Source of the DNA: a virus
Taxonomy: Duplodnaviria > Heunggongvirae > Uroviricota > Caudoviricetes
Direction: 5' to 3' (one strand)
Length of the DNA stretch: 25,684 bases
Virus record (IMG/VR): IMGVR_UViG_3300029467_000153
Positions 1,208-16,161 of this stretch are shown piece after piece (position 1 is the stretch's first letter; each line of letters starts with the position of its first letter). The translations under genes were made by a program, and so were the position numbers. The notes under the pieces were generated by a model. The model was not told the DNA's origin, ran no database searches, and saw only the letters and a program-made list of their open reading frames with translations.

Positions 1208-2503
1208 TTAATTTTTCATTGCTTCGTTATGGGGCATGGTTGGGGCAAACTCGCTTAACTGTGTATTTAACAAAGCTACCTGTGCATTATTGTTTTCAGA
1301 CATCCATTTTCCGTATACCTGAAATACCATTTGCGCATCTGCATGGCCCATCTGGTTTGCTATAAATGCCGGGTTAGCACCAGCTGTCAGCGACCAGCAG
1401 GCATAAGTATGTCTCGACTGATATGATTTTCGATGGCGGAGTCCGGCACGTTTTATCGCTGCGTCCCACATCTGCCTTATTGAGTCAACGGTAAAATGGT
1501 CACCATAATTTTTTACTCTCGCTGACACTTCAGGTTGAAAAACAAAGGTGCATTTTTGTTTTTCTGTTCTGCCATACTCTCTGAGGTGAACATCAATGAT
1601 ATGCTCTTTGCTCAGTCTCGTTAATGTCATCTGACTCCGGAGAGCGTCGATTGCTGGCTTAATAAGATGAATGACCCGATTGGTTCCCGCCTGTGTTTTT
1701 GGTACCGTGAAACGGTCTTTTGCTAAATTTCTCCTGATCATCATTGTTCCATTTTTCAGATCTATGTCCTCCCATCCAAGTGCACACAGCTCACCAGGGC
1801 GAACGCCAGTATAAACAGAAACACACCATAAATTTTTTGCTTGCTGATTTCTGCACGCATCGATAAGACGGATAAATTCTTCCCGCGAAAGAGGATCCGG
1901 AATGGTTCTTGATTCCTTTAATGGCGAGATCCCCTTAAACGGATTATCTGCCAGGTAACCGTTATCAACACCAAACTGGAACACGGCGTTAAGATTTGTC
2001 ATGTAATTATTTACAGTTACAGCCGATCTCCCTGGTTGTGTAACAATATAGTTACTTTTGGGGATCTGGTATCCAGTCAGTAACTCTTTACGAACCTCCA
2101 GTAATTTTTCTTTATTAATCGATGAGGCAAGATTTTTTTCACCGATTATGCTCAGGATATTTTTGATGACGGCACGGTATGTGTTGAGTGATGTTTTGGC
2201 GACTTCAGTTTCTTTCAGTGCCAGAAATTTTTCAGCCAGTTCTTTTATGGTTAAATCTTGTCGGGCCTCACCAAATTTTTCCAGATTGCGTGAGGAGGGA
2301 AACTGTTTTGCATAGTCGAAAACACCAGTTTTTATTGCGTAACAAACAGAGGAGCGTAGTTCACCTGCAACGCGCCTGTTTTTTGCTGTGTCAGGAACCC
2401 CCAGATTTTCCCTGACTCTTACGTCTTTATAAACAAACCAGATACGTAATTTCCCTCCATGGTTTTCCACGCCTGTCGGATATTTCATTTCAACTTCTCT
2501 CAT
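1208..2503 (-). CDS. int: phage tyrosine integrase (full length)
   Basis: 431-aa ORF with tyrosine-recombinase C-terminal motifs (RHTYACW; GHADAQMVFQVYGKW) and an N-terminal arm-binding-type region; sits next to attL and is transcribed toward it. The second ATG at 2488 (MKYPTG) has the better purine-rich upstream context. Confidence 0.9.
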   Translation of the reverse strand: MREVEMKYPTGVENHGGKLRIWFVYKDVRVRENLGVPDTAKNRRVAGELRSSVCYAIKTGVFDYAKQFPSSRNLEKFGEARQDLTIKELAEKFLALKETEVAKTSLNTYRAVIKNILSIIGEKNLASSINKEKLLEVRKELLTGYQIPKSNYIVTQPGRSAVTVNNYMTNLNAVFQFGVDNGYLADNPFKGISPLKESRTIPDPLSREEFIRLIDACRNQQAKNLWCVSVYTGVRPGELCALGWEDIDLKNGTMMIRRNLAKDRFTVPKTQAGTNRVIHLIKPAIDALRSQMTLTRLSKEHIIDVHLREYGRTEKQKCTFVFQPEVSARVKNYGDHFTVDSIRQMWDAAIKRAGLRHRKSYQSRHTYACWSLTAGANPAFIANQMGHADAQMVFQVYGKWMSENNNAQVALLNTQLSEFAPTMPHNEAMKN

Positions 2504-2522
2504 TAGTTAGTGTGGCTTTTAG

Positions 2523-2774
2523 TCAAGTAAGATGACGTCTTGGTCTCGCTGATGCCTGGCGCTCAATCCAGCGATCAATTTCTTCCAGGTTGTAAAAGCA
2601 TGGACTGTTATCCCATGGCATACCGTCATGAGCGACATGCTTATATTCCCTTCCTTCCATAAACGATTTTTCCCGGGCCTTTTTTAACGTACCTTTTTTT
2701 ATTCCTTTCAGCGCAATTAACTGCTCTTCGGATACCCATTTGCCGGGAGAGACAATCATGATTACTTCGCTCAT
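2523..2774 (-). CDS. xis: putative excisionase / small DNA-binding protein
   Basis: 83-aa ORF immediately upstream of int on the same strand, basic C-terminus; call is by position and size only. Confidence 0.45.
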   Translation of the reverse strand: MSEVIMIVSPGKWVSEEQLIALKGIKKGTLKKAREKSFMEGREYKHVAHDGMPWDNSPCFYNLEEIDRWIERQASARPRRHLT

Positions 2775-2846
2775 CGATTTCTTTATCTCTTACATCAGAC
2801 GAGCGCCGGTTGCAGAATACCAGTCACAACCGGCGACAGTTGAACA

Positions 2847-5318
2847 TTAAGAATCAGCCTGACTCGGGATCAGTTTTTGCCAGATAACTGAAACGTATTT
2901 TGCCTGGTAACGGGCGTCATCAAGTGCATTATGGCGCTCACCTTCGAATGGAATAGCCGTTCTGGCATCGAAGTCTATGGCTTTCCCCAGCTCAACGATT
3001 GTGCGTACATCGCGATCGTTGTAGTAACGCCACGGGCAGGGGATCCCCTGCCGTTCGTATGAACGGCGCAAAATCGTGTTGTCGAAGTTGGCTCCATTTC
3101 CCCAAACCTGAACAAAAAATTCACCGGAGTTTTCGTCGATAAATTCTCGCAATTGTAACAGTGCATCATCTAACGGGATTTCATCGGTCATAATGGCAGA
3201 TTGCGCTTCGCGTGATTGCTTAAGCCACCATTTAATGGTGTCCCGATCAATGACTCCGCCAGCAGTTTCCAGATCGATAGTCTTACTAAATTCCGGTCCC
3301 ATATCTCCGGTTTGCGGATCGAAAAATATTGCACCTATTGAGATGATCGGGGCATCAGGATTTTTTCCCATGGTTTCAAGGTCGATCATTAGATGGTCAC
3401 ACGTCCTGCTGGTGGATGTGATTTCGTGATGACTGTTCACCTTAATTGGGTGATCTGCCGTCTCGCCAGTTTCATTATCGCTATTGTGATGCTGATTGCC
3501 GCCAGTGTTCTCCTTGTGTGGATGTTCAGCGCCTTCCATTTCCTCCGGATCATCTTCCTGAACTTCAACCTGATACTCTTCATCGAATGTTTCTTGGTAT
3601 GTTGCGTCGCCCATCACCGCGCCACAATCAGGGCAGTTGCCGCCGCCGGTCTGACCGCAGGCGGTGCAGACTTTTTCCACTTCCTGTTGCGCTACTGGTT
3701 CAGGCTGTTTCGTTTCTGGCTCGTTTTGTAACGCATTTGGACTGTTTTGTTCCGCTTTTTGGTAGTTCCGTTCCGATTCATGCTGGTTCTGGTTCACAGA
3801 ATCGCGGGTCTGGAGCCCCTTAACCCATTTCGGATCATTCGGGTCACTAATCCCTTCAACAAATTCACCACGTGATGCAGCAAGCAACTTATCGGCGTCA
3901 GGCTGGCTGATATTGGCTGCCTGCATAATTTTGTTTACTTCGTCAGCGGTAACTTTTATCGGCTCTGGTTGTTCTGAATCTTCAGCGGTATCTACATTTT
4001 GCGGTAAGCCCGTGTATGTGCCATTTTTTCGGGCAAAATATTCTTCTTTTGTGATTTCAGTGGCGCCAGCAGCCAGTGCCTTATCCAGACCAGAGAGTTT
4101 GTTTGCGCGACCGTATTTTTCTCCGTCCTTATCTGCGAAGAGGAAATAGAACGGCCCCTCACGCTCTACAGATGGTTCAGCTTCCGGCGCGGTTTCATTT
4201 TTTGGGATATCAGATACCTCAGTTTCCACTGCATCAGTTTGTGTGTCTGATGACTGGAGAACATCAACAGTGCCCAGGTCTGTTTCTTCATTCTCAAACA
4301 CGCCCTTTGTCGTCAGGTATTCGCAGATATATTTGTTCAGTGCTACGGGATCTTTGTGAATGTCGATCGGACGCTCACGGACAAGGCCAAAAATAGTTTG
4401 GCGGTCGTAGCGAAGGGCATCAGGCTGTTTGCGCATTGATGCCGAGATACGCTTCCAGTCTTCGCGGTCGTTGTCGATAACTTCTTTTTTTGCCCAGCGA
4501 TGGATGCTGCCGTCAATGTTTCCGGCATCCACATCACTAGGCCAGAGAGCGTAGGCCAGTTCGTCATCCAGTGTTTTCCATGTCTGCTTGTATTCGCGAT
4601 GAATGGCAGCAATGACCGGGCTGATTTTTCCTGTTGAATTTTCAGTGTACTGTTGATTGGCTCTGGCGCGGGCGAGATCAACAACAGACGTGTATTTTCC
4701 GGTTTCCTTGCGTTCACCTTCGCGACGTTTTTTCCAGATGCGCATCTCTGCCTGAATTTCGGGCCATTTAGCACCAGGAATACATTTATGCTTAACCCAC
4801 CCAATGGCGTGCAACTTAAGCTCCGGATACATGGCGTTAACTTCTGGCATTTTCATCAACGCTTCAACGATATGTCCGTCGAATGTTGCCATGTCTTCCT
4901 GCAACAATTCCTGTGCGCTAATAACCATATCAACGGTGATGTTTTCACATGTGTCGAACTTAACCATGACAGCGTTCTGTACTTCAGGGGCCAGCTTGTC
5001 AAAAGTGACGTTCATCGGATCGGATTCAGTCTCAACCGGGACAAAAGAAGCAGACTCCTCATCCCAGCGGTTTTCCTGCATATATTCAGCATCCCATGAA
5101 TCGAGGGCAGGGCGGGGTATGCCAGGTTTATCCTCGCAGACAATAAATTTATAAGCGCAGTCCTGAGCAGCCGGATAATGTTCTAGGAATTGCCAGTGAA
5201 ATTTTGCTCGAGCACGGCGTTCGTCGCCAGCTTCAATGGCTGTGGCTACAGCCACAGCGCCTTCTTCCCTTGTTGCCAGTTCGTCAGGAATAGCGGCGCA
5301 AATAAAGACTTTACTCAT
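2847..5318 (-). CDS. large prophage protein with C-terminal DEDDh (DnaQ-like) 3'-5' exonuclease domain; family often annotated exodeoxyribonuclease VIII-like
   Basis: 823-aa ORF; C-terminal about 180 aa carry Exo I (MIDLETMG), Exo II (GNGANFDNTIL) and Exo III (HNALDDARYQ) motifs; central acidic low-complexity linker and a Cys4 motif (CTACGQTGGGNCPDCG); occupies the exo/bet position of the leftward operon. Confidence 0.7.
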   Translation of the reverse strand: MSKVFICAAIPDELATREEGAVAVATAIEAGDERRARAKFHWQFLEHYPAAQDCAYKFIVCEDKPGIPRPALDSWDAEYMQENRWDEESASFVPVETESDPMNVTFDKLAPEVQNAVMVKFDTCENITVDMVISAQELLQEDMATFDGHIVEALMKMPEVNAMYPELKLHAIGWVKHKCIPGAKWPEIQAEMRIWKKRREGERKETGKYTSVVDLARARANQQYTENSTGKISPVIAAIHREYKQTWKTLDDELAYALWPSDVDAGNIDGSIHRWAKKEVIDNDREDWKRISASMRKQPDALRYDRQTIFGLVRERPIDIHKDPVALNKYICEYLTTKGVFENEETDLGTVDVLQSSDTQTDAVETEVSDIPKNETAPEAEPSVEREGPFYFLFADKDGEKYGRANKLSGLDKALAAGATEITKEEYFARKNGTYTGLPQNVDTAEDSEQPEPIKVTADEVNKIMQAANISQPDADKLLAASRGEFVEGISDPNDPKWVKGLQTRDSVNQNQHESERNYQKAEQNSPNALQNEPETKQPEPVAQQEVEKVCTACGQTGGGNCPDCGAVMGDATYQETFDEEYQVEVQEDDPEEMEGAEHPHKENTGGNQHHNSDNETGETADHPIKVNSHHEITSTSRTCDHLMIDLETMGKNPDAPIISIGAIFFDPQTGDMGPEFSKTIDLETAGGVIDRDTIKWWLKQSREAQSAIMTDEIPLDDALLQLREFIDENSGEFFVQVWGNGANFDNTILRRSYERQGIPCPWRYYNDRDVRTIVELGKAIDFDARTAIPFEGERHNALDDARYQAKYVSVIWQKLIPSQADS

Positions 5319-5411
5319 TTTGTTTTAACCTCATGACAGATTTAAGGATGAACAAATCCCTGCCATTGCTGGCATATAAGAATGAAACCGGATATTTATT
5401 ACGGAACTGTT

Positions 5412-5612
5412 TTAAAGACCTGCCGGGATTTCGATATTATCCTGGTGAATAACTTTATCGACCGGGTAACAGTTACCGGGAATTTTCTGTTCGGTTGCTG
5501 CAGTCATACACTCCTGCATTGTCCTGTGAACACTGACTGCAATATCAACTGGCACTCCGGAAACAAGAAAAACTGTCAGAACAAGCGCAAATGCTGAATT
5601 TATTGTGCACAT
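5412..5612 (-). CDS. ydfD: small prophage protein, YdfD-like (lysis-associated in K-12 Qin)
   Basis: 66 aa from the internal Met (MCTINSAFALVLTVFLVSG...), hydrophobic N-terminus; lies directly downstream of dicB as in K-12. Identity is from memory and the start is uncertain (ORF extends to 5657). Confidence 0.5.
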   Translation of the reverse strand: MCTINSAFALVLTVFLVSGVPVDIAVSVHRTMQECMTAATEQKIPGNCYPVDKVIHQDNIEIPAGL

Positions 5613-5788
5613 CCTTTTGGCATCAGACGTAAACGAGCCAGCATTGAAACAATGCATATTTTATTTAATAGCTCCCGTTCTTGTTTTCTCTTGTTAATGG
5701 CATCTTCAGTAAATACAGGGTTACTGATAGTGACACCAATTTCAAAACAACCTTCAGACGTATTAACGTTTGGTAATAACGTTTTCAT
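5600..5788 (-). CDS. dicB: cell-division inhibitor DicB
   Basis: 62-aa ORF MKTLLPNVNTSEGCFEIGVTISNPVF... matching my recollection of DicB; GAGGA Shine-Dalgarno 9-13 nt upstream of the ATG. Confidence 0.7.
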   Translation of the reverse strand: MKTLLPNVNTSEGCFEIGVTISNPVFTEDAINKRKQERELLNKICIVSMLARLRLMPKGCAQ

Positions 5789-5929
5789 TATCGCGTCCTC
5801 AACAATGAATTTTGTGATGCAGTGCCTGGTGCCTCCAGGTGACGTTAACCAGTTAACAATTAACGTCGGATATTCGAACGCTGGAAGGCTATCGACACCA
5901 GGGATAAGCGTGAAAAGTTCACGGCGCTA

Positions 5930-6193
5930 GTGCCTGCAATTATGGAGGCTATTCGGATTAATGATTTCAGGTTGTATCGTGAAATTAGTGACGGAAAAAG
6001 CATCACGTACATGATCGCCGGGTTAAACAAAGAATATGGCGATGTGGTGGAGTCCGGACTGCTTTTTGCTGATCCTGCCGTAGTGGATCGTGAAACTGAC
6101 GAACTTATAGAAAAAGCAATTGCTTTCAAACTTGCGTATCGACAGCAATACCAACAAAAAGCTGGATGGAATTATGAGCCTTCTTTTTGCTGA
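5930..6193 (+). CDS. hypothetical protein, first gene of the rightward early region
   Basis: 87-aa ORF (GTG at 5930 or ATG at 5942) with balanced composition, unlike the Ser/Thr-rich antisense ORF 5860-6129; its stop overlaps the start of the next gene (coupling). Weak RBS. Confidence 0.3.
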   Translation: MPAIMEAIRINDFRLYREISDGKSITYMIAGLNKEYGDVVESGLLFADPAVVDRETDELIEKAIAFKLAYRQQYQQKAGWNYEPSFC

Positions 6194-7046
6194 ACGCCCA
6201 CTGGTTATAAACACACAGCTTGCGATGAAGATTGGCTTAAATGAAGCCATTGTGTTGCAGCAGTTGCATTACTGGTTGAGAGATACCAATTCCGGCATGG
6301 AATGTGATGGTGTTCGCTGGATTTACAACACAACGGAACAATGGCTGGAACAGTTCCCATTCTGGTCAGAGTCAACGTTAAAGCGCGCGTTTGCAAGTCT
6401 GAAAACGCTGGGGCTTTTGCGTTGTGAAAAGCTCAATAAATCAAAGCGCGATATGACCAATTTCTACACGATCAACTACGGGAGCGAGCTTTTAGATGGT
6501 GGCAAATTGAGCGAATCCATCGGTTTAAAATGCGCCGCTCCATCAGGTCAAAATGACACGATGGAAGAGGTCAAAATGAAACGCTCCATTGGTTCAAAAC
6601 GACCCAATGTCATCGGGTCAAAATGGCCTGATGATCTTACAGAGAATACAACAGAGATTACTACAGAGAATAAAAACACTTTTCGTCCGGAAGCTTCGCA
6701 ACCGGACCCGCAGACCGCTGAACAGGATTTTTTAACCCGGAACCCCGACGCGGTTGTGTTTAGTGCGAAAAAACGCCAGTGGGGTAGCAGGGAGGATTTG
6801 GCGTGTGCGCAGTGGATTTGGGGGCGGATCGTGAACCTTTACGAACAGGCTGCCAGCGACGATGGAGAGATCATGCGACCAAAAGAGCCTAACTGGACAG
6901 CCTGGGCCAATGACGTGCGCACAATGCGGATGCTGGATGGCAGAAGCCACAGACAAATTTGCGAAATGTTTGGTCGGGTAAGCCAGATTCTGGCACTGAC
7001 AGATAGAAAGCCTGTTATCTGTCAACGAACAGGGAAAAAACGATAA
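6174..7046 (+). CDS. phage replisome-organiser / replication-initiator-like protein (winged-helix N-terminal domain)
   Basis: Start chosen at the internal ATG 6174 (MSLLFAERPLVINTQLAMKIGLNEAIVLQQLHYWL...); the N-terminal pattern ...EQWLEQFPFWSESTLKRAFASLKTLGLLRCEK resembles DnaD / phage replisome-organiser N-domains. Recognised by pattern only. Confidence 0.45.
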   Translation: MSLLFAERPLVINTQLAMKIGLNEAIVLQQLHYWLRDTNSGMECDGVRWIYNTTEQWLEQFPFWSESTLKRAFASLKTLGLLRCEKLNKSKRDMTNFYTINYGSELLDGGKLSESIGLKCAAPSGQNDTMEEVKMKRSIGSKRPNVIGSKWPDDLTENTTEITTENKNTFRPEASQPDPQTAEQDFLTRNPDAVVFSAKKRQWGSREDLACAQWIWGRIVNLYEQAASDDGEIMRPKEPNWTAWANDVRTMRMLDGRSHRQICEMFGRVSQILALTDRKPVICQRTGKKR

Positions 7047-7566
7047 AACCCACTGGATTATTTTTATGAAAGAGGCATCCAGTGAGTAGATTCGTAAGGT
7101 TACAGATACGTATATCTGAATAATTAAATTCAGTTCTGTAAATAAAACTTAATCCTTAACCGGATGGATTTCTGCACCCTCAGAACATCAGGAGGCCGCC
7201 CGAAAGGGCGGTAGTGAAATGCGAAAGTTCAAAATTATTATTGAAACGGGAATAGCTGGTGGAGATTTTGAGGATGTATTCGAAGTGGACGATGACGCAA
7301 CACCTGATGAAATTCATGACGGAGCATAAGAAATTTTCTTTAACTACTGCAATTACTCATACCACGAAATAAAAGACGATGAGGAAGAACAAAGTGGCTG
7401 ATTTTTGTTCAGCTAAATATAACATCAGTTTTGAAGAGCGGGATGAACTATTAATGGACTATGGTGAGTTACGCGGTGGAAGTGCTGCTGATGTCGAATC
7501 CTAGCGTGATGACTATGAAGCGGGAAAAACTCCGGTCGAAGCATATTGTGATGAGTGGGGCGATGA

Positions 7567-7854
7567 ATGAGCGAGATTAATTATCAGGAAGGGCATGAAA
7601 CGGCGGGGCAAGCAAAACCAGTGACATGGCGATATCGCTACGTGAAAAAAGGCGTTACGGACTTTCAGGGGAAGTAGTGGTCTGGTGACTGGAAATATGT
7701 ACCGAAAAAAGAGGATTGTAACGACAGGCCGAACTATCAAATTCAGGCCTTATTCACTGCCTCACCAGTCCCGGTTACATCAGAAGAATTGGTTAAAGCT
7801 GTGCACTTTTATGAACAACTAAAACGCGAAAATCCACCAACATCCGGCAACTAG
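7567..7854 (+). pseudogene. about 95-codon ORF interrupted by a single in-frame amber codon
   Basis: MSEINYQEGHETAGQAKPVTWRYRYVKKGVTDFQGK-TAG(7675-7677)-WSGDWKYVPKKEDCNDRPNYQIQALF...PPTSGN in one frame; the frame stays open on both sides of the stop. Confidence 0.3.
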
Positions 7855-8108
7855 ATTAATGGGTTAACTATGTCGGTTAAACGACCAGCCAACTGAAAAA
7901 GCGGAAACCTGATTACAGGTTGCCAGATAAGGCAATGAGCTACCTGGCGCGGAACGGACTGATAAGTATGGGGAATGTTTTACGATGAACCTTTAGACTA
8001 AAGAGTTTGTAACGCTATGTAAGTGATTTTTTCTGGTTTAGATATTTATATGTCCGGCCAAATTGAGGTGTGTTTAAATGTAATTGCACATTGATTGTAG
8101 GAGGAATA

Positions 8109-8246
8109 ATGAAAAACGCATTGCAGTTTTTGTTTGTTGCGTTCTGGTTGTTCGCATCATGTATGCCCATCATCTTCACAGCAAGGTATATGGAAAAAGT
8201 TGATGTTTTGATATTAATATTTGGATATATAAATGCCCTTTTTTAG
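8109..8246 (+). CDS. small hydrophobic (membrane) protein, 45 aa
   Basis: AGGAGG at 8099-8104, 4 nt before ATG 8109; product MKNALQFLFVAFWLFASCMPIIFTARYMEKVDVLILIFGYINALF is largely one hydrophobic helix. Confidence 0.35.
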   Translation: MKNALQFLFVAFWLFASCMPIIFTARYMEKVDVLILIFGYINALF

Positions 8247-8621
8247 GGGTGTTCATGGCGGTCATGTGCATTGAATACTGGCGGTAAATACAGCGAACTC
8301 CATTGGTTTAGTTGGATATTTACTGTGCTGGACAAAAACGGTTTGCGGGGAAATCTTAGTTAAGTAGAATGACTGCGGGTGCTTGAGGCTATCTGCCTCG
8401 GGCACGAACACCAACGGCAGGTAGAGAAAAGCCCCAGTTAACATTACGCGTCCTGCAAGACGCTTAACATTAATCTGAGGCCAATTTCATGCCAGACACA
8501 TGTAGGTTAGCCTCTTACGTGCCGAAAGGCAAGGAGAAGCAGGCTATTGTTAACACCAAGCTGTAATGTCCCCTTTGAACCATTCTAAAATGTCCCCAGA
8601 CAATTCTCTGGGGGATTTTTC

Positions 8622-9963
8622 ATGACCAAAGAAACTGTTACGATGAGTCATAAGGAACTCCACCGACTTCAGATTATTCAGGAGTCAATTAATCGACATA
8701 TTACTCAGGAACAAGCTGCGGCACGCATTGGCATTTCTATTCGGCAGGTTAAACGTCTGGTGCAACGGTATAGAAATGAAGGGCCTTCTGGTCTGGTTTC
8801 CCACCGACGTGGAAAGCGTCCTAATAATTCCTTTTCTACTGAATTCAGAGCAACAGTAATTTCACTCCTCAAAGGCCGTTACGCTGATTTTGGACCTACG
8901 TTTGCGTGCGAAAAATTGCGCGAGATACACGGTTTATCTTTATCCGTTGAAACTCTCAGAAAGTGGATGATAGAAGAGGGGGGTATGGCGTGAACGCCGT
9001 CGTAAAATTGCCCGTATATATCAACGCCGCATGCGACGACCATCTTACGGTGAACTGATCCAGATTGATGGCTCACCTCATGACTGGTTTGAAAATCGAG
9101 GCCCCAGATGTACACTGATCGTTTTCATTGATGATGCCACCAGTGCGTTGATGGCGTTGCGTTTTGTGCCTGCTGAAACAACCCGGGCTTACATGGAAAC
9201 CCTCCGGGGTTACCTTAATGATCATGGCGTACCGCTCGCTCTCTACTCTGATAGACACAGTATATTCAGGGTAAATAACCCAGAGCGGGAAGGTGAGCTG
9301 ACCCAGTTCACTCGTGCGATAAAGACACTGGGCATCGAGCCAATCCATGCCAACAGCCCGCAGGCAAAAGGGCGGGTAGAGCGCGCCAATCAGACACTAC
9401 AGGACAGGCTGGTCAAAGAAATGCGGCTTCAGAATATCAGTGATATTGAAACAGCAAATGCATGGTTGCCGACCTTTATTGAAGCCTATAACAACCGGTT
9501 CGCTACGTCGCCTCGTACTACTGATAATGCTCATCTTGATGTGCACCATTCTGAAGAGGAACTGGGTTATATCTTCAGCCTACAGGCGAAGCGCGTTCTG
9601 TCTAAAAATCTCACTTTCCAGTACAAAAGCAGTGCGTTTCAGGTACGCAGTGAGGGCCGGGGATATCGACTTAGGCATTCGGTTGTTACTGTATGCGAGA
9701 ACTTTGACGGTGAAATTAACGTTCTGTATGACGGGAAAGCGCTGGGCTGGGAAAAGTATGTTGATGGCCCGGAGCCTATACCACTGGATGATGAAAAGAG
9801 TGTCCATGAACGAGTGGATAATGCCCGTATTGATTTACGCTCAAAATACTATGTTAAACCTAAAGCTGACCATCCCTGGCTTACGCGCCGAACGCAAAGT
9901 CATCAGCAAGTTAAGCCCCCGAAGTTACCTAAAAAGAAGCCTGATCCCGATAAAAAAGATTGA
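8622..9963 (+). mobile_element. IS-element DDE transposase (N-terminal HTH plus integrase-core/rve-like domain), split by a frameshift
   Basis: ORF 8622-8993 (HTH-like N-terminus) and ORF 9031-9963 (DDE-like motifs IQIDGSPHDW, YSDRHSIF, SPQAKGRVERANQTL) are in different frames and overlap around a G6 run at 8978-8983; removing one G fuses them (...MIEEGVWRERRRKIARIYQRRMRRPSYGELIQIDG...). IS family and terminal inverted repeats were not determined. Confidence 0.65.
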
Positions 9964-10399
9964 AACCAAGATCGATTCGGTTGAGTGCATATCCATTCAT
10001 AGGGTAGATTCTTAAGTCGCGTTTCTGGTGTTCATTTTCGGGTGGTTTGTTACTTGTTTTACCGGGGATATGCCAGAAACGCGCTGAGTCAGTCTGGGCG
10101 GTGCGCGTAATGAGGCGTTATGGTAAATAGCCTATGCTAATGTCCGCTAAGAGCAAGAAGCGGAAGTTGGCAGTTTTGTGGACTGTCCCCACAAAAGTGA
10201 CTACAGAAATAGTTGCAATTCATAATTGATCATGGGTTGTCAGTTAAACTCGTGGCGATTTAAATAGACTAATTGGGAGTGCGTCCATTACTTATATCTT
10301 GTAATGTTAACTATCAGAAATGATACAAAGATAATATGTCTTTAAAGAAAAGGCTGATGGCGAAAAGTGGCCCGATGAGGGCCACAATACGGCTGTCAC

Positions 10400-10732
10400 T
10401 TAGACGTAAATATCAATGGTGCCAGCGGTATTTGTATCGTCTTTTTTCTCTTCTTTTTTATCAGGCTGAACTGTCGCGTCTTTATTCTTTTTCTCTGCCT
10501 GCTGCCTTAACAACTGCTCCAGTTGAGCCCTGAGGCTTTCAATTTGCTTCTGTACCAATGCAGCCATTTCTTTTTTCTGCTGTGTCGTCATCCCCTCTTC
10601 CGATGAGATTTTCCCAAGCTTTTCAGTCAGCACCTGAATTTGTCTTGTGATTTTGGCTATTTCTGATGTTCCTTCCGGGGCGGAGTTGTTTGAAATAACG
10701 GTTGAGGTATTTCCCTGAATTGTGACAGACAT
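10400..10732 (-). CDS. flxA: FlxA (FliA-regulated protein)
   Basis: 110-aa ORF MSVTIQGNTSTVISNNSAPEGTSEIAKITRQIQVLTEKLGK... matching my recollection of FlxA; AAGGAG Shine-Dalgarno 7 nt upstream; a sigma-28-type promoter lies immediately upstream. Confidence 0.75.
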   Translation of the reverse strand: MSVTIQGNTSTVISNNSAPEGTSEIAKITRQIQVLTEKLGKISSEEGMTTQQKKEMAALVQKQIESLRAQLEQLLRQQAEKKNKDATVQPDKKEEKKDDTNTAGTIDIYV

Positions 10733-10755
10733 AGATTTCTCCTTTTAAAAAAGCA

Positions 10756-10782
10756 CTATCGGCATGCACAAAAAAATCTTTA
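10756..10782 (-). promoter_or_regulatory. sigma-28 (FliA) class-3 promoter of flxA
   Basis: On the minus strand TAAAGATT-N11-GCCGATAG against the consensus TAAAGTTT-N11-GCCGATAA, about 25-50 nt upstream of the flxA ATG. Confidence 0.6.
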
Positions 10783-10934
10783 ATCGTATTTCTTGTGTCA
10801 TTAATTGTTTGATGTTCAGATTGTTTTCCTCGCGGGCTGGCGCGCCTCAGAAAGTAAAGCTTGTTGACAGGGGTAAACGTTCGGCAATAATTTTCTGCCG
10901 CATGCGGGTGTTGCATAAAACGTGCTACGTTCCT

Positions 10935-11240
10935 TTATCGACAGGTCAGGTCACCGCTCACCCGCCGACGAGAAAGCAACACTGACATGCTAAAGCAAAA
11001 AATAGATGAATAAGTTGAGTTGTGCATATGTAGCCTGACCGTCACAAAGTATATGGTGTCTGTACCAGTAAGATGATGGCCGGACTCTTTAAAAACGAGC
11101 TGACCTGCACAATACAGGATGGACTTAGCAATGGCTGCTCCTGGCACAAAGCGGACAGTGATCACCGTTCTTACGACTACTTTCTGACTTCCTTCGTGAC
11201 TTGCCCTAAGCATGTTGTAGTGCGATACTTGTAATGACAT
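10935..11240 (-). CDS. hypothetical protein (YdfV-like by position)
   Basis: 101-aa ORF divergent from relB; assigned only by position and length relative to K-12 gene order. Its start abuts the relB operator, which is suspicious. Confidence 0.25.
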   Translation of the reverse strand: MSLQVSHYNMLRASHEGSQKVVVRTVITVRFVPGAAIAKSILYCAGQLVFKESGHHLTGTDTIYFVTVRLHMHNSTYSSIFCFSMSVLLSRRRVSGDLTCR

Positions 11241-11253
11241 TTGTAATTACAAG
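11228..11253 (+). promoter_or_regulatory. relBE operator (relO-type inverted repeats) in the relB promoter
   Basis: cttgtaatgacatttgtaattacaag contains the perfect palindrome TTGTAATTACAA plus an additional TTGTAAT half-site, ending 12 nt before the relB ATG. Confidence 0.6.
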
Positions 11254-11264
11254 AGGTGTAAGAC

Positions 11265-11504
11265 ATGGGTAGCATTAACCTGCGTATTGACGATGAACTT
11301 AAAGCGCGTTCTTACGCCGCGCTTGAAAAAATGGGTGTAACTCCTTCTGAAGCGCTTCGTCTCATGCTCGAGTATATCGCTGACAATGAACGCTTGCCGT
11401 TCAAACAGACACTCCTGAGTGATGAAGATGCTGAACTTGTGGAGATAGTGAAAGAACGGCTTCGTAATCCTAAGCCAGTACGTGTGACGCTGGATGAACT
11501 CTGA
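11265..11504 (+). CDS. relB: RelB antitoxin
   Basis: 79-aa ORF MGSINLRIDDELKARSYAALEKMGVTPSEALRLMLEYIADNERLPF... (ribbon-helix-helix antitoxin); GAGGTG Shine-Dalgarno; stop overlaps the relE start (ATGA). Confidence 0.9.
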   Translation: MGSINLRIDDELKARSYAALEKMGVTPSEALRLMLEYIADNERLPFKQTLLSDEDAELVEIVKERLRNPKPVRVTLDEL

Positions 11505-11791
11505 TGGCGTATTTTCTGGATTTTGACGAGCGGGCACTAAAGGAATGGCGAAAGCTGGGCTCGACGGTACGTGAACAGTTGAAAAAGAAGCTGGTTGAAG
11601 TACTTGAGTCACCCCGGATTGAAGCAAACAAGCTCCGTGGTATGCCTGATTGTTACAAGATTAAGCTCCGGTCTTCAGGCTATCGCCTTGTATACCAGGT
11701 TATAGACGAGAAAGTTGTCGTTTTCGTGATTTCTGTTGGGAAAAGAGAACGCTCGGAAGTATATAGCGAGGCGGTCAAACGCATTCTCTGA
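11504..11791 (+). CDS. relE: RelE mRNA-interferase toxin
   Basis: 95-aa ORF MAYFLDFDERALKEWRKLGSTVREQLKKKL...GYRLVYQVIDEKVVVFVISVGKRERSEVY, translationally coupled to relB. Confidence 0.9.
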   Translation: MAYFLDFDERALKEWRKLGSTVREQLKKKLVEVLESPRIEANKLRGMPDCYKIKLRSSGYRLVYQVIDEKVVVFVISVGKRERSEVYSEAVKRIL

Positions 11792-11862
11792 ACCAAAGCA
11801 TGACATCTCTGTTTCGCACCGAAGGTGACACTTCTGCTTTGCGTTGACAGGAGAAGCAGGCT

Positions 11863-12018
11863 ATGAAGCAGCAAAAGGCGATGTTAATCGCCCTGATCGT
11901 CATCTGTTTAACCGTCATAGTGACGGCACTGGTAACGAGGAAAGACCTCTGCGAGGTACGAATCCGAACCGGCCAGACGGAGGTCGCTGTCTTCACAGCT
12001 TACGAACCTGAGGAGTAA
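11863..12018 (+). CDS. hokD: Hok-family type I toxin (HokD/RelF)
   Basis: 51-aa ORF, below the ORF-track cutoff, found by direct translation: MKQQKAMLIALIVICLTVIVTALVTRKDLCEVRIRTGQTEVAVFTAYEPEE; carries the Hok signature TRK.LCE.R....EVA.F.AYE and sits just downstream of relE. Confidence 0.85.
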   Translation: MKQQKAMLIALIVICLTVIVTALVTRKDLCEVRIRTGQTEVAVFTAYEPEE

Positions 12019-12086
12019 GAGACCCGGCGGGGGAGAAATCCCTCGCCACCTCTGATGTGGCAGGCATCCTCAACGCACCCGCACTT

Positions 12087-12112
12087 AACCCGCTTCGGCG
12101 GGTTTTTGTTTT
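12087..12112 (+). terminator. rho-independent terminator after relB-relE-hokD
   Basis: aacccgc-ttcg-gcgggtt hairpin followed by tttttgtttttatttt. Confidence 0.6.
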
Positions 12113-12234
12113 TATTTTCAACGCGTTTGAAGTTCTGGACGGTGCCGGAATAGAATCAAAAATACTTAAGTAGCGCGCAGGGATAAGAGGGATGGTCCCT
12201 TAAAGGGGAGAGCTAATTATCCGGAAGGATTCTG

Positions 12235-12486
12235 ATGATGAACATCGAAGAACTGCGTAAAATTTTTTGTGAAGATGGCCTCTATGCTGTGTGCGTTGAA
12301 AATGGAAATCTTGTTAGTCATTACCGCATTATGTGTTTGCGAAAGAATGGGGCTGCGTTAATTAATTTTGTGGATGCTCGGGTCACGGACGGATTTATCT
12401 TGCGCGAAGGTGAGTTTGTCACTTCATTACAGGCATTGAAAGAGATCGGAATAAAAGCTGGCTTTTCTGCTTTTTCAGGAGAATAA
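12235..12486 (+). CDS. rem: small prophage protein Rem-like
   Basis: 83-aa ORF adjacent to hokD as in K-12 Qin; assigned by position and recollection, function unknown. Confidence 0.55.
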   Translation: MMNIEELRKIFCEDGLYAVCVENGNLVSHYRIMCLRKNGAALINFVDARVTDGFILREGEFVTSLQALKEIGIKAGFSAFSGE

Positions 12487-12552
12487 ACTCATCTACAATC
12501 TTGCGCGGGGCTGAACTCCCGCTGAGTAACACCGTGCCACCGGAGAAAACCG

Positions 12553-12831
12553 ATGGCACGCAACGCAAAATATTACAATTCTGATAATTCGCCCGTTCTT
12601 GCCTGCACGCACGGGCGGTATTCTCACGCATTCAAGTCTGAATGGTTCCAGCACCCTCCATGCACTGCAGAACAGGCCGAATGGCTGATTCATTCTTACC
12701 GCAGGCGCGGGTTCGAGGTTAAGAAAGCTCTCAGTCTCGACTATCGGCACTGGATAATCTCTGTCAGGCTGCCTTATTCCGAACGCCCACCACGTGCGTC
12801 CCGCACTTTCCAGCAACGGATCTGGAGGTAA
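12553..12831 (+). CDS. hypothetical protein
   Basis: 92-aa ORF overlapping the next gene by 38 nt in another frame; no recognisable motif. Confidence 0.3.
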   Translation: MARNAKYYNSDNSPVLACTHGRYSHAFKSEWFQHPPCTAEQAEWLIHSYRRRGFEVKKALSLDYRHWIISVRLPYSERPPRASRTFQQRIWR

Positions 12832-13882
12832 CGTGCGGGTATTACTTAGACCTGTTCTGGTGCCTGAGCTTGGGCTGGTGGTCCTTAAGCCAGGCCGTGA
12901 ATCCATACAGATATTTCATAATCCTCGAGTGCTGGTGGAACCGGAACCAAAAAGCATGCGTAATCTGCCATCCGGAGTCGTTCCTGCCGTTCGCCAGCCG
13001 CTGGCGGAAGACAAAACATTGCTGCCGTTTTTTAGTAACGAACGGGTGATTCGTGCTGCTGGCGGCGTTGGCGCATTGTCCGACTGGCTATTACGTCATG
13101 TTACATCCTGCCAGTGGCCTAATGGCGATTACCATCACACTGAAACAGTCATTCACCGTTATGGTACCGGCGCAATGGTGTTGTGCTGGCACTGCGACAA
13201 CCAACTGCGTGACCAGACATCGGAATCACTGGAGCTGCTTGCTCAACAAAATCTGACAGCATGGGTGATTGACGTCATCCGTCACGCAATAAGCGGTACG
13301 CAGGAGCGGGAATTATCTTTGGCTGAATTATCCTGGTGGGCGGTCTGCAATCAGGTGGTGGATGCACTACCTGAGGCTGTATCGCGTCGTTCGCTGGGAT
13401 TACCAGCGGAAAAAATCTGCTCGGTGTACCGCGAAAGCGACATCGTACCGGGAGAGCAGACCGCCACCAGCATATTGAAACAACGCACAAAAAATCTTGC
13501 ACCGTTGCCTTACGCCCACCAGCAACAAAAATCACCACAGGAAAAGACGGTGGTAAGCATCACCGTTGATCCAGAGTCTCCGGAATCTTTCATGAAGCTG
13601 CCTAAACGTCGCCGCTGGGTTAAGGAGAAATACACACGTTGGGTTAAGACACAGCCGTGTGCTTGCTGCGGTATGCCAGCCGACGATCCGCATCATCTGA
13701 TTGGTCACGGGCAGGGCGGAATGGGAACAAAAGCACATGATCTCTTTGTGTTGCCTTTGTGCAGAAAGCATCACAACGAGCTGCATACGGATACAGTGGC
13801 ATTTGAAGATAAGTATGGCTCCCAACTGGAGCTGATATTTCGTTTTATCGATCGCGCGCTGGCAATTGGCGTACTGGCGTAA
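12794..13882 (+). CDS. ydfU: DUF968-type prophage protein (YdfU-like) with C-terminal Cys/His cluster
   Basis: 362-aa ORF; C-terminus CACCGMPADDPHHLIGHGQGGMGTKAHDLFVLPLCRKHHNELH looks like a metal-binding HNH-like motif; sits in the nin-region position upstream of Q. True start uncertain. Confidence 0.6.
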   Translation: MRPALSSNGSGGNVRVLLRPVLVPELGLVVLKPGRESIQIFHNPRVLVEPEPKSMRNLPSGVVPAVRQPLAEDKTLLPFFSNERVIRAAGGVGALSDWLLRHVTSCQWPNGDYHHTETVIHRYGTGAMVLCWHCDNQLRDQTSESLELLAQQNLTAWVIDVIRHAISGTQERELSLAELSWWAVCNQVVDALPEAVSRRSLGLPAEKICSVYRESDIVPGEQTATSILKQRTKNLAPLPYAHQQQKSPQEKTVVSITVDPESPESFMKLPKRRRWVKEKYTRWVKTQPCACCGMPADDPHHLIGHGQGGMGTKAHDLFVLPLCRKHHNELHTDTVAFEDKYGSQLELIFRFIDRALAIGVLA

Positions 13883-13895
13883 GTGGAGAACGAGC

Positions 13896-14648
13896 ATGAA
13901 CCTTGAAGCCTTACCAAAATATTACTCCCCAAAATCTCCAAAATTGAGCGATGACGCTCCAGCGACAGGCACCGGTTGTTTAACAATTACGGATGTAATG
14001 GCAGCGCAGGGGATGGTGCAGTCGAAAGCACCACTTGGGTTGGCCTTATTTCTGGCAAAAGTTGGTGTTCAGGACCCTCAGTTTGCGATTGAAGGCCTGC
14101 TAAATTACGCGATGGCACTGGATAACCCGACATTGAACAAATTGAGTGAAGAAATCCGGTTACAGATTATTCCTTACCTCGTGAGTTTTGCCTTTGCTGA
14201 TTACTCCAGGTCTGCGGCAAGTAAGGCTCGCTGTGAGCATTGTTCAGGTACGGGATTTTATAATGTATTGCGCGAAGTGGTGAAACACTACAGACGCGGG
14301 GAATCTGTAATCAAGGAAGAATGGGTGAAGGAACTATGTCAGCATTGCCATGGTAAGGGCGAAGCCAGCACAGCGTGCAGAGGGTGTAAGGGTAAAGGGA
14401 TTGTTCTGGATGAAAAAAGAACCCGGTTTCATGGCGTACCGGTATATAAGATTTGTGGGCGTTGTAATGGAAACCGGTTTAGTCGTTTACCGACCACGCT
14501 GGCACGACGTCATGTCCAGAAGCTGGTACCAGACCTGACCGATTATCAGTGGTATAAGGGGTATGCGGACGTCATTGGTAAACTGGTAACAAAGTGCTGG
14601 CAGGAAGAAGCATACGCGGAAGCGCAATTGAGGAAGGTGACGAGATAA
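13896..14648 (+). CDS. quuQ: late-gene antiterminator Q
   Basis: Start taken at the internal ATG 13896 (MNLEALPKYYSPK...) preceded by GGAGA; Cys/His-rich zinc-binding region (CEHCSGTG...CQHCHGKG...CRGCKGKG...CGRCNG); located just upstream of the lysis region. Confidence 0.8.
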   Translation: MNLEALPKYYSPKSPKLSDDAPATGTGCLTITDVMAAQGMVQSKAPLGLALFLAKVGVQDPQFAIEGLLNYAMALDNPTLNKLSEEIRLQIIPYLVSFAFADYSRSAASKARCEHCSGTGFYNVLREVVKHYRRGESVIKEEWVKELCQHCHGKGEASTACRGCKGKGIVLDEKRTRFHGVPVYKICGRCNGNRFSRLPTTLARRHVQKLVPDLTDYQWYKGYADVIGKLVTKCWQEEAYAEAQLRKVTR

Positions 14649-14679
14649 ATGATTTTTGCTGAAGATGGCGACATGATGT

Positions 14680-14708
14680 TTGCATTTTTCAAAAAATATG
14701 GATAAAAT
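14680..14708 (+). promoter_or_regulatory. candidate late promoter (PR'-like) downstream of Q
   Basis: TTGCAT-N17-TAAAAT about 35 nt after the Q stop and about 45 nt before a strong terminator, the arrangement expected for a Q-utilisation promoter and short leader. The -35 is weak. Confidence 0.35.
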
Positions 14709-14754
14709 TTTTTCAACGATGGGCTTTGTATACCCGACGTTAAGAAAAAGTAGA

Positions 14755-14784
14755 AAACCCGCTGATGAGCGGGTTTTGTGCTTT
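14755..14784 (+). terminator. rho-independent terminator (tR'-like)
   Basis: aaacccgct-gatg-agcgggttt hairpin followed by tgtgcttt. Confidence 0.6.
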
Positions 14785-15069
14785 AAATGGGGCAATGGTA
14801 ATGTTGAATCTCATCCCGGGACTCATGTCTGTTAACTTATTATTTAGCTGGTGACTTGGTTATTTGCCTGATGTTTAAAATGTTTTCTTCCAGTACAATG
14901 TCCCTAAACACAATGAGTCTGCTTATTATATTATTAGCAGAGCTATTACGGCCAAAGTACAGCATAAGCTTTTAAAGCCAATCAACCAGTCATCAAGACA
15001 GACGGGGTTATTCATAAAAACTCTCCATGTGTGATTCGATGGGGCCTGAAATTAAAGCTTTAATATAGC

Positions 15070-15282
15070 TCATGAAAGGTAAACATTGGCAGCTGAAGGG
15101 CCACGCAGACCATTTATCCGGCAAAATTCCACGCGTAATCCGGTGGTAATTTCTTCTGCATCGCGGAGATTGAGCGCTGAGACATGAAGCTGGACATCGA
15201 TACGACCATCGGATGGGGTGATAAGACCCTTGCCGCTTTTGCCGTCAAAGGTTTTGACAATTCCTGTCATTTTACGGGACAA
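15070..15282 (-). CDS. cspF: cold-shock-domain protein CspF
   Basis: 70-aa CspA-family [29 protein letters not shown]...[16 protein letters not shown], lacking the canonical aromatic RNP1 patch as in CspF/CspH; divergent from cspB. Confidence 0.8.
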
Positions 15283-15385
15283 AAAAATTCCTTAATACTG
15301 ATAACTTGGCGCACTATACACACGTTCCTGAAGAAAGCTATAGTTTTTTGATGGGGTTGAAGATGGCTGGATGTCTAAAATAAAC

Positions 15386-15414
15386 ATTGCTTCATATGTT
15401 CAACTATGCGTTAA
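15386..15414 (+). promoter_or_regulatory. candidate cspA-type promoter of cspB with long 5' UTR
   Basis: TTGCTT-N17-GTTAAT, about 170 nt upstream of the cspB ATG; the 11-mer ATGCGTTAATG is repeated upstream of cspI at the same relative position. Confidence 0.4.
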
Positions 15415-16103: not shown

Positions 16104-16161
16104 TTATCTGCTTTAAATATATTATTAAAATATAAAAAATACTTGTTACTAATAAAATCAA

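Follow-up and report, generated by a model that had tools for sequence, protein, structure and literature searches.

How can a cryptic prophage keep dicB and ydfD, which encode a cell-division inhibitor and a lysis protein, when dicA, a repressor gene essential where it is present (PMC11481867), is missing? This question is raised by the 25,684-base stretch of DNA analysed here (the window). The original prediction had found both genes intact beside an immunity region collapsed to about 140 bp, and had proposed that they are either promoterless, controlled in trans by the repressor of another prophage, or controlled by an unrecognised element. The best explanation, which as a whole we consider highly probable, is a single Qin deletion of about 2.1–2.2 kb that left dicB and ydfD intact but probably silent and equally orphaned the remnants of two rightward genes, ydaT and a replication-O-like gene.

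Judged from its sequence, the locus is a Qin-type cryptic lambdoid prophage of E. coli. It is inserted at the K-12 Qin site between rspB and ydfJ, as expected of a Qin orthologue, and carries dicB (PF05358) followed by ydfD (DUF1482), the second mark of the Qin type. The window is collinear with K-12 Qin, with identities of 98.8–99.9% across all common blocks; its positions 1–2367 correspond to K-12 rspB-intQ (99.9% identity) and positions 21606–25684 extend to ydfJ (98.75% identity to K-12). The gene order in intact relatives is int-xis-exo-ydfD-dicB-DicF-ydfCBA-repressor/cro-ydaT-O-DUF977, and the K-12 order dicC / dicA-ydfABC-dicF-dicB-ydfD had been given correctly in the original prediction. 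The following features are observed around dicB:

2847..5318, minus strand: ydfE-type exonuclease gene, 823 aa (Pfam Rv2179c-like domain, E = 2.4e-67)
5412..5603, minus strand: ydfD, lysis protein, 63 aa, intact (DUF1482, E = 2.2e-25; 60/63 residues identical to K-12 YdfD)
5600..5788, minus strand: dicB, cell-division inhibitor, 62 aa, intact (PF05358, full length, E = 1.9e-40; 62/62 residues identical to K-12 DicB)
5789..5872, minus strand: surviving native dicB 5' leader, 84 nt (98.9–99.8% identical to K-12 and relatives up to 5872)
5869..5872, no strand: deletion junction 1, GATA microhomology (alignments to intact relatives overlap exactly there)
5873..6193, plus strand: ydaT remnant, about residues 66–173 of 173 (tblastn with YdaT, 97% identity, E = 5e-69)
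6174..6986, plus strand: replication-O-like gene, residues 1–271 of 321 (tblastn, 97.8% identity over 1–271)
6977..6980, no strand: deletion junction 2, GGTA microhomology (the window jumps from L004 5901 to L004 6888)

The genes dicB and ydfD overlap by 4 bp, and their intactness is as originally described. The ydfE-type gene, labelled 'exonuclease' in the annotation of relatives, is complete in the window while its K-12 counterpart is a pseudogene; the K-12 alignment over this region spans only 4552–5872.

The absence of a dicA/dicC-type repressor is borne out. Searches of all 25,684 bases by tblastn with DicA, DicC and the three other repressor types and three Cro types of intact relatives give a best E value of 0.7, and nothing better is found with YdfA, YdfB or YdfC. 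The helix-turn-helix repressor and divergent Cro/DicC gene that make up a lambdoid immunity region are thus both lacking from the window, as had been supposed, and so are the parts of a dicBF operon, namely DicF and, upstream, ydfA-ydfB-ydfC and dicBp. The Rfam covariance model of DicF (RF00039), the search proposed with the original prediction, yields no match in the window at the gathering threshold and none in 5300–8700 even at E ≤ 10, and the same model scores 72–77 bits in K-12 and three relatives. No DicA, DicC or DicF is therefore detected by homology in 5790–7100, where their discovery would have spoken against the prediction. A permissive Rfam search of 5300–8700 placed only two models in the gap upstream of dicB, one for a plant miRNA and the other for STnc100 (E = 0.67; 18 bits, where the cut-off is 47), and we take both as chance. 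Further to the right, the antirepressor of DicA (role taken from PMC10448788) is kept although its target is deleted:

12235..12486, plus strand: rem, DicA antirepressor (83/83 residues identical to K-12 Rem)

Alignment to the K-12 dic region, as originally suggested, locates the loss. Collinearity ends at 5872 (K-12 1649525) and restarts at K-12 1647439 inside ydfX/ydaT, and K-12 segment 1647440–1649524 is missing from the window. Alignments to five relatives stop and start at 5869–5872. The left parent site, S0, is CCGGATA^ in the dicF-dicB spacer, 84 bp upstream of the dicB ATG; the right parent, S5, is GAAGATA^ in ydaT, near codon 66. The two parents can be read off directly: ...CGGATA^CAGAG and ...GAAGATA^TTCGAAC give the product ...CGGATA^TTCGAAC. 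With identifiable parents, common bases and no inserted DNA, the junction is that of a microhomology-mediated deletion. Measured against L007 the deletion takes out 2,224 bp and against K-12 about 2,085 bp, a length fixed only to 2.1–2.2 kb and dependent on the immunity type of the ancestor. One illegitimate-recombination event joined CCGGATA^ to GAAGATA^ via the 4-bp GATA and removed dicF, ydfC, ydfB, ydfA, dicBp with its operators, dicA, dicC, the rightward promoter and the first ~65 codons of ydaT.

The exact junction is found in 0 of 5,426 complete E. coli genomes, in no GTDB representative and in none of the metagenome contigs matched, and E. coli strains often hold several dicB-bearing prophages (median 2 places per genome). 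Both observations would fit an assembly mis-join of two prophage copies in a draft assembly. Assemblers, however, err at long common k-mers and not at 4 bp, the two flanks are both 99.5–99.9% K-12-like and collinear with the Qin site, and finished genomes contain comparable junctions that share the left end (181 genomes with S0-S7, and MLI105, KL53 and MRE162). We consider a mis-join extremely improbable and take the deletion as real.

The gap between dicB and the divergent reading frame has to be read anew. The distance from the dicB start at 5788 to the first rightward start at 5930 is indeed 142 bp, but only 84 bp of it (5789–5872) is native dicB-upstream DNA. From 5873 on the DNA runs inside the coding sequence of ydaT, so the immunity region proper has left no trace. 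The divergent frame does exist, though not as a whole gene: it is the C-terminal remnant of YdaT, in which the first start codon in frame is the GTG at 5930. The Pfam family YdaT_toxin (PF06254) is matched at 21.2 bits against a cut-off of 21, over profile positions 13–71 of 92, only with translation from 5873; ORF 5930-6193, translated from its own start, has no Pfam match, holds no full-length YdaT domain and is a gene fragment. In MLI105 and MSB1_9I the corresponding ORF carries the RefSeq flag 'missing N-terminus'. The antisense ORF 5860-6129, which had been left as a candidate regulator, is rejected because it lies opposite the YdaT frame, itself 97% identical to YdaT; it also has no Pfam match.

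The remnant of ydaT is followed by the O-like gene, annotated in AHB21 as 'phage replication protein O', whose C-terminus was lost to a second deletion. This deletion of ~1 kb, whose parental sequences were likewise identified, removed the 3' end of the O-like gene, a DUF977 gene and a methyltransferase gene. The left parent site (GGTCGGGTA^) serves in MRE162 as the right end of a deletion.

The consequences for expression follow from what went with dicA. In K-12, dicBp is the only operon promoter with experimental support, and no alternative was found within the operon (Ragunathan et al. 2023, PMC10448788). Since dicBp and its operators are gone, promoterless is the best reading among the proposed options, and control by the repressor of another prophage, as it had been stated, is untenable because its target operators and promoter went with the deletion. 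The pR-like promoter of the rightward genes was taken as well. The promoter prediction called for originally points the same way: a consensus scan finds no sigma-70-like site on the minus strand in 5300–8700 (2 sites overall against 6.6 in shuffles), and a relaxed scan of 5760–7300 never finds a −35 hexamer better than 3/6. No promoter created by the junction is seen by inspection or in the relaxed scan. As far as prediction goes, the locus thus lacks the own promoter of a transcriptionally active toxic moron. Cut off from their only documented promoter, dicB and ydfD are most likely transcriptionally silent passengers, as judged from the consensus scans and the K-12 literature. Loss of dicA alone is lethal through derepression of dicB, so that a dicA-less prophage can persist only if dicBp is lost too; all seven of the other dicA-less deletion alleles examined are also without the ydfA-proximal promoter region.

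The two genes might instead be transcribed at a low, tolerated level, from a weak promoter in the leader or by read-through antisense to the ydaT and O remnants or from the region up to the IS, and be kept since low DicB gives phage resistance. DicB guards against lambda-type infection via ManYZ (PMC6832061), and both ORFs are unbroken in 20 of the 20 deletion-bearing loci checked, with several YdfD haplotypes. The native leader holds a weak −35/−10 pair, TGGAGG-17-CAAAAT, at 5837–5809. Cam et al. 1988, as cited in PMC10448788, suggested a second promoter upstream of dicB, which could still allow dicB expression if it lies inside the retained 84 bp. Against this stand the 2023 study, which saw evidence for no promoter beyond dicBp (PMC10448788), the scans described above, two terminator-like hairpins on the minus strand (7921–7906 and 7413–7397), and a predicted leader hairpin that pairs the ribosome-binding site and AUG. 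Intactness fits recent loss and equally continued function, and it is a weak test because the two ORFs total only 375 nt. Low expression is therefore held to be unlikely, and we retain silence as the preferred reading.

The third proposed option, an unrecognised control element, concerned an inverted repeat in the gap, and its presence is confirmed:

5841..5867, no strand: inverted repeat GACGTTAA-N11-TTAACGTC (8-bp arms 5841–5848 and 5860–5867, 100% complementary, 11-nt spacer)

The repeat belongs to the dicF-dicB spacer as found in K-12 and in every relative, hence is neither new nor born at the junction, and it probably does not serve as the supposed element. In K-12 and 16 other loci it matches at 7/8 positions, with C instead of T at 5866. 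In the dicB-sense RNA this common allele has G.U where the window has A-U, and pairing is complete in both. The leader is predicted to form three RNA hairpins (−26 kcal/mol, z = −2.9) and its K-12 counterpart to fold alike, and hairpin 3 is the one predicted to pair the Shine-Dalgarno/AUG region. As single-stranded DNA the repeat folds weakly, at −6.0 kcal/mol in the window and −3.3 kcal/mol (z = −0.46) in the common allele. We infer that the repeat is the DNA image of the predicted leader RNA hairpin 1, at the 5' edge of the conserved dicB leader, and that it has no repressor-binding role and is not an operator. A DNA site, operator or insulator, for a trans-acting protein replacing DicA would have to consist of this repeat and three TTAAC motifs. 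The motifs show an 8-bp spacing, over 100 loci show hardly any variation in the sequence, and a perfect 8-bp repeat with an 11-nt spacer has, by rough estimate, a chance of ~0.04 in 142 bp. Yet K-12 and all intact prophages have the repeat as well, and there control needs no more than DicA acting at dicBp, 1.3 kb upstream (PMC10448788); the repeat is mostly 7/8 as DNA while fully paired as dicB-sense RNA, and no promoter adjoins it for a bound protein to regulate. A protein site is thus very improbable, and the reading as a leader hairpin is preferred.

Comparison with related alleles shows that the window is not alone in its losses. The S0-S7 allele, found in 181 of 5,426 complete genomes (for example MSB1_9I and E. 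coli 042), has the same left end CCGGATA^, keeps dicB and ydfD intact, has lost dicA, dicC and DicF, and likewise ends on the right within ydaT. It differs from the window in its right end, 79 bp further into ydaT (window 5951/5952), and in a microhomology of TA only, where the junction creates the palindrome CCGGATATCCGG. MB06234 is the closest overall relative (99.7%), with the same T allele in the repeat and near-identical flanks, and like the window it has dicA and DicF deleted. Its junction lies 3 bp rightward (GGATACAG^) and lands in dicC, so that a dicC fragment and full ydaT are retained, unlike in the window. The window allele could have derived from an MB06234-type allele by a further 283-bp GATA-mediated deletion, or could be independent.

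At least 10 different deletions in other strains end at GGATA^, the left end, or at one of a few other ...TA^ sites. S0 anchors a deletion in about 190 of 5,426 complete genomes, and a scan of GTDB species representatives for S0 junctions gives 0 matches. S0 (5866–5872) is joined elsewhere to at least nine partners, namely S3, S6, S7, S8, S9, S10, S12, S4 in the case of MB06234 (+3), and one unmapped site; S3, S4 and S9 are located in relatives. S7 (5951/5952) has five partners, among them the truncation of YdaT that is K-12 ydfX. Junction 2 of the window uses S12 (6980/6981), which MRE162 joins to S0. Scans of IMG/VR for a non-parental next base give 107 matches at S0, of which about 11 contigs carry 5–6 deletion types, against 0 at three other bonds; a control TA site in ydaT shows a SNP only. 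In IMG/VR no use is seen of five perfect GGATA sites, nor of an 11-bp repeat of S0, CCGGATACAGA, 3.4 kb away, and the deletion product of the latter is absent as a single piece from the 5,426 genomes. A plain microhomology model predicts the use of both kinds of site and is rejected; microhomology length alone is not the determinant.

These observations would suit a junction made by sequence-directed breakage or recombination on a few ...RGGNTA^/GATA^ sites, with S0 (5868–5872) the most used, an idea that concerns the origin of the deletion and not what was removed. Several facts weaken it. The scans were built around S0, so deletions elsewhere are uncounted, and natural phage variants diverge at S0, a mosaic boundary that could inflate the apparent reuse. 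Some alleles are possibly sequential (S6 to S8 via the 8-bp repeat TATCGACA, L018 to L017 via GATA). The end sites share only GG(N)TA^/GATA^, and although their reuse is strong, no enzyme or extended recognition site was found. Hairpin stalling as the cause of an S0 hot spot is rejected, the local DNA folds being weak and the common allele like shuffles. By eye, we know of no Chi, Ter, dif/Xer, DnaA-box, IHF, IS-target or restriction site that fits well around S0 or S7. CCGGATA/TATCCGG may resemble the arms of E. coli REP elements, which we treat as a lead only. A sequence-directed origin of the junction is accordingly doubtful, though clearly less remote than the other alternatives. We hold as equally tentative the wider idea that S0 and a few ...GG(N)TA^ sites (S7, S12, S3, S4 and S9) are true hot spots of a sequence-directed breakage or joining process that prunes the Qin immunity and replication region repeatedly and independently across E. 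coli, producing K-12 ydfX and always sparing dicB-ydfD.

The finding itself is minor, a further private deletion allele in a cryptic prophage that is already well studied. It does resolve the paradox of toxic genes without a repressor, as the promoter was lost with the repressor. It also illustrates a general rule, that an essential prophage repressor can be lost only together with the promoter that it silences; dicA-less Qin alleles would therefore all be promoter-less, and their intact dicB and ydfD should not be annotated as an active toxin locus. The reuse of end-points could matter more than the deletion, the K-12 reference being itself broken at S7. If the hot spots were true, prophage decay here would be steered by a specific activity or a structure in the DNA rather than left to random slippage, and a specific mechanism would offer a tractable natural system for the targeting of illegitimate recombination in prophage domestication. 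In the literature we found no account either of alleles that lack dicA but keep dicB or of end-points that recur.

Deletion series with one fixed end are known from Int-promoted deletions at lambda att and from deletions with one end fixed where rolling-circle origins are nicked. The likeness lies in one recurrent end-point with many variable partners that weakly resemble it; the differences are that no recombinase, nick site or att-like structure is found at S0 or S7 and that several sites, not one, are reused here.

In K-12 Qin the integrase and exonuclease genes are lost to IS2, and the ydaT 3' end and most of the O-like gene are lost too; the window keeps the first two intact and retains the latter sequences. 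The window, for its part, is without dicF, ydfCBA, dicBp, dicA, dicC and the 5' part of ydaT. DicB and Rem are identical in the two and YdfD agrees at 95%; the 84-bp dicB leader and the inverted repeat in it are common to both. The ancestral architecture is of the type of the lambdoid switches (lambda cI/cro, P22 c2/cro, with a pL operon of host-toxic early genes). Published work treats C2 as the counterpart of DicA, Cro as that of DicC and pL as that of dicBp (PMC6832061, PMC10448788). Unlike these systems, the window keeps none of the switch, and the distal genes of a pL-type and a pR-type operon alone survive, head to head.

Both dicB and ydfD are intact in the window, as originally predicted. 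DicB matches PF05358 over its full length and is identical to the K-12 protein at 62 of 62 residues, and YdfD matches DUF1482 with 60 of 63 residues identical. The two genes overlap by 4 bp, and the neighbouring gene for an exonuclease of 823 aa is also intact.

Features of the window (5' to 3')
5412-5603, minus strand: ydfD, DUF1482 (ORF listing and Pfam)
5600-5788, minus strand: dicB, PF05358 full length (ORF listing and Pfam)
5866-5872: S0, left end-point of the deletion
5930-6193, plus strand: ORF for the YdaT tail, residues 66-173, 97% identity (tblastn)
8377-8548, plus strand: sok-type antisense RNA match, 99.8 bits
8622-9963, plus strand: ISNCY/IS1202-like transposase in two ORFs (8622-8993 and 9031-9963), directly against the sok match
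12235-12486, plus strand: rem, DicA antirepressor gene, 83/83 identical to the K-12 copy
15422-15814 and 18325-18710, plus strand: two cspA-type thermoregulator leaders (Qin cspB/cspI-type cold-shock genes)
22145-22343, plus strand: IS009 RNA match, near the tail-fibre/pin region

The predicted lack of a dicA/dicC-type repressor is borne out. DicA, DicC, three other repressor types, three other Cro types, YdfA, YdfB and YdfC from intact relatives were used as tblastn queries, and the best match across the entire 25.7-kb window has an E value of 0.7. At gathering thresholds, the Rfam matches in the whole window are sok, two cspA-type leaders and IS009, with no DicF; a permissive search (E<=10) of 5300-8700 likewise gives no DicF, for which K-12 and three related loci reach 72-77 bits with this model. 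Neither a DicA/DicC-like ORF nor a DicF gene is therefore hidden here as far as tblastn and Rfam can see. The locus lacks the DicF, ydfABC and dicBp (the operon promoter) of a dicBF operon, and the repressor and Cro of a lambdoid immunity region. The antisense ORF 5860-6129, raised in the original prediction as a possible regulator, is rejected: it has no family match and lies opposite the conserved ydaT frame.

The locus is a deletion product. No complete E. coli genome of 5,426 carries 5300-7200 as a single piece (megablast), and the best matches split at about 5870. The intact order in annotated relatives is int, xis, exonuclease, ydfD, dicB, DicF, ydfC/B/A, repressor, divergent cro, ydaT, O-like gene and DUF977. 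In pairwise alignments the left side stops at 5872 and the right side resumes at 5869. The left parent, ...AACGYCGGATA^CAGAGAATCC (^ marks the joined bond), comes from the spacer between dicF and dicB, 84 bp upstream of the ATG of dicB, and the right parent, ...GTGAAGATA^TTCGAACGC, is internal to ydaT; the window product is ...CGGATA^TTCGAACGC. This junction is clean, with a 4-bp microhomology, GATA, at 5869-5872. The deleted DNA amounts to 2,224 bp against L007, the closest intact right-hand relative, and to about 2,085 bp against K-12, in whose terms it comprises dicF, ydfC, ydfB, ydfA, dicBp, dicA, dicC and the first ~65 codons of ydfX/ydaT. The first rightward ORF was correctly placed from 5930, and its equivalent in other strains is labelled 'missing N-terminus' in RefSeq. 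Loss of dicA and dicC by deletion is almost certain. The remnant is the distal end of a pL-type operon set against the distal part of a pR-type operon, and the locus is ordinary cryptic-prophage decay.

Three explanations had been offered for the harmlessness of dicB and ydfD: no promoter, control in trans by the repressor of another prophage, or an unrecognised element. Transcription of dicBF begins at dicBp, upstream of ydfA, where DicA represses it, and neither primer extension nor northern blots pointed to a promoter besides dicBp (Ragunathan et al. 2023; PMC10448788, section 6); an older study, as noted in PMC10448788, had proposed a promoter upstream of dicB. As dicA is essential in strains carrying it (PMC11481867), a viable dicA-less prophage must also be without dicBp, and dicBp is gone in the window and in all seven other dicA-less alleles examined. 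Scanned against the consensus, the minus strand of 5300-8700 shows no sigma-70-like site, and a relaxed scan of 5760-7300 finds a -35 hexamer of 3/6 at best. Terminator-like hairpins are found on the minus strand at 7921-7906 and 7413-7397. Control in trans is moot because the operators are deleted. Promoterless passengers are the best explanation of dicB and ydfD, and judging from sequence the two genes are probably silent.

The candidate for an unrecognised element was the inverted repeat GACGTTAA-N11-TTAACGTC, which lies exactly at the predicted position. It was not born at the junction, and it is native leader sequence: the whole 84-bp leader with the repeat is present in K-12 and every relative examined. 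Most strains have TTAACGCC as the right arm, which leaves 7/8 pairs at the DNA level; a T is found there in the window, in MB06234 and in some others. Folded as single-stranded DNA, the repeat has little stability: -6.0 kcal/mol in the window allele and -3.3 kcal/mol (z=-0.46) in the common one. In dicB-sense RNA it pairs in both alleles (G.U in the common allele, A-U in the window). Three hairpins are predicted in the leader RNA (5780-5872, minus strand; -26 kcal/mol, z=-2.9), with the same structure in K-12. In the third, UUCAUUGUUG pairs with CGAUAAUGAA in the Shine-Dalgarno/AUG region, so that the start codon is sequestered and the Shine-Dalgarno sequence flanked, which suggests that translation of dicB may be damped. 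We infer that the conserved dicB leader, whose sequence varies little, would carry at its 5' edge a stem-loop formed by the repeat.

A second deletion is found in the same prophage at 6977-6980, with the microhomology GGTA. It links GGTCGGGTA^ to AGCCAGATT, with CCGGTA^AGCC as the right-hand parent; the O-like gene has lost its final ~50 codons, and the DUF977 and methyltransferase genes are gone. Its end-point, S12, is shared with MRE162. A small set of ...TA^ sites, mostly GG(N)TA or GATA, is reused for the end-points of 12 or more distinct deletions among the Qin-type prophages of various strains (loci L001-L005, L017-L019, L046, L069, L242, L269, L272 and L273), and dicB and ydfD are intact in 20 of 20 deletion-bearing loci. 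All junctions fit a crossover directly 3' of TA, usually in GG(N)TA or GATA. One phosphodiester bond, S0 (CCGGATA^), recurs as left end-point in many distinct deletions and has at least nine partners.

Partners of S0 (site, sequence, position, where found)
S3: CCGGGGTA^GCGGAAC, upstream of ydfA; L069
S5: GAAGATA^TTCG, in ydaT; the window
S6: GGCTA^TCGACACC, window 5891/5892 (site 5890-5892); L003, L114
S7: GGCTA^TCCGGATT, window 5951/5952 (site 5950-5952); L017 and many others
S8: GCGTA^TCGACAGC, window 6138/6139 (site 6137-6139); L242
S9: GGGGTA^GCAGGGAGG, window 6786/6787 (site 6785-6787); L019, KL53
S10: TTGATA^TGTGCTG, absent from the window; L046
S12: GGGTA^CAGCG, window 6980/6981 (site 6979-6981); MRE162

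S7 itself has five partners, namely S0, S1 (just upstream of DicF), S3, a site in the exonuclease gene and S11 (in an ISNCY element, the K-12 ydfX truncation), and S4, in dicC, is common to the H2-type and MB06234 alleles. Certain alleles may have arisen stepwise from others, S8 from S6 via TATCGACA and L017 from L018 through GATA. Alleles related to that of the window are not uncommon: the parental sequence with S0 intact is present in 3,894 genomes, S0-S7 in 181, S0-S9 in 4, S0-S12 in about 3 and S0-S6 in 1. The exact window junction is found in 0 of 5,426 complete genomes, in no GTDB representative and not among the metagenome matches, and appears to be a private allele.

IMG/VR was scanned for the conserved left flank followed by a non-parental base. 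The S0 scan gives 107 matches, about 11 contigs of which carry 5-6 distinct deletion types, in end-point scans that were designed around S0 and with singleton alleles from draft assemblies. S0+3 gives natural variants only, three other leader/spacer bonds give no match, and a control TA site in ydaT shows a SNP and no deletion. The 3.9 kb right of S0 in an intact reference hold 173 TA sites, 16 of them GGNTA; those used are GGCTA (twice), GGGTA (twice) and AGATA. Microhomology length is rejected as the main determinant because five perfect GGATA sites and an 11-bp S0 repeat are not seen as end-points. Lambdoid prophages also show a natural boundary of mosaicism and indels at S0, with divergence or small indels exactly there in L024, L020, L022, L141, L147, L152, L177 and others (IMG/VR). 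One variant, GGATA-ATCCACCC, lacks the CAGAGA of K-12, and others read GGATA-TTTCACCC or CCGG-GTTAGTTGATG, so that at most 3 nt separate the end of the conserved dicB module from the deletion hot spot. The S0 sequence recurs in intact relatives as a direct 20-bp copy at the 3' end of their O-like gene (L007 7724-7745, reverse-complement orientation; CCGGATACAGAAATTCCGCC versus CCGGATACAGAGAATCCACC, exact core 11 bp), which the window lacks. TA(N)CAG(N)G also occurs in S12, S1, S2 and S4, and the S0-like sequence may be a dispersed short motif. No enzyme or structure accounting for the reused end-points was identified; they are the sole part of the locus that might reward more study.

Elsewhere in the window, rem is kept although dicA and the operators are deleted, and is an orphaned regulator. 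No Hok-like ORF is seen beside the sok match, where the IS may have replaced the toxin gene. The cspA-type leaders and the IS009 match are expected of Qin.

Conservation (PMC5069750) and regulation (PMC10448788) of the dicBF locus have been described; our literature search found no description of dicA-less, dicB-retaining alleles or of common end-points. MB06234, the closest relative (99.7%), is joined differently, at GGATACAG^GAGGCATC, and its junction runs into dicC. The window and K-12 Qin are the same prophage at the same chromosomal site, rspB to ydfJ, and are orthologues, with 98.8-99.9% identity over 1-2367, 4552-5872, 5869-5951, 9779-21002 and 21606-25684; window 2368-4551 has no counterpart in K-12. 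The integrase (1208-2503, minus strand) and the 823-aa exonuclease (ydfE) are intact in the window, whereas K-12 has an IS2-disrupted intQ and a ydfE pseudogene. K-12 ydfX is YdaT truncated at S7 (window 5951/5952; NC_000913.3 1647357/1647358). There, GGAGGCTA^ is joined to CCACTGG..., the window parent being GGAGCCTATA^CCACTGG in the ISNCY-type element at 9780/9781; the reference Qin therefore has its own TA-microhomology deletion, of about 3.8 kb. Compared with K-12, the window copy is less decayed in its left arm and more decayed in its centre.
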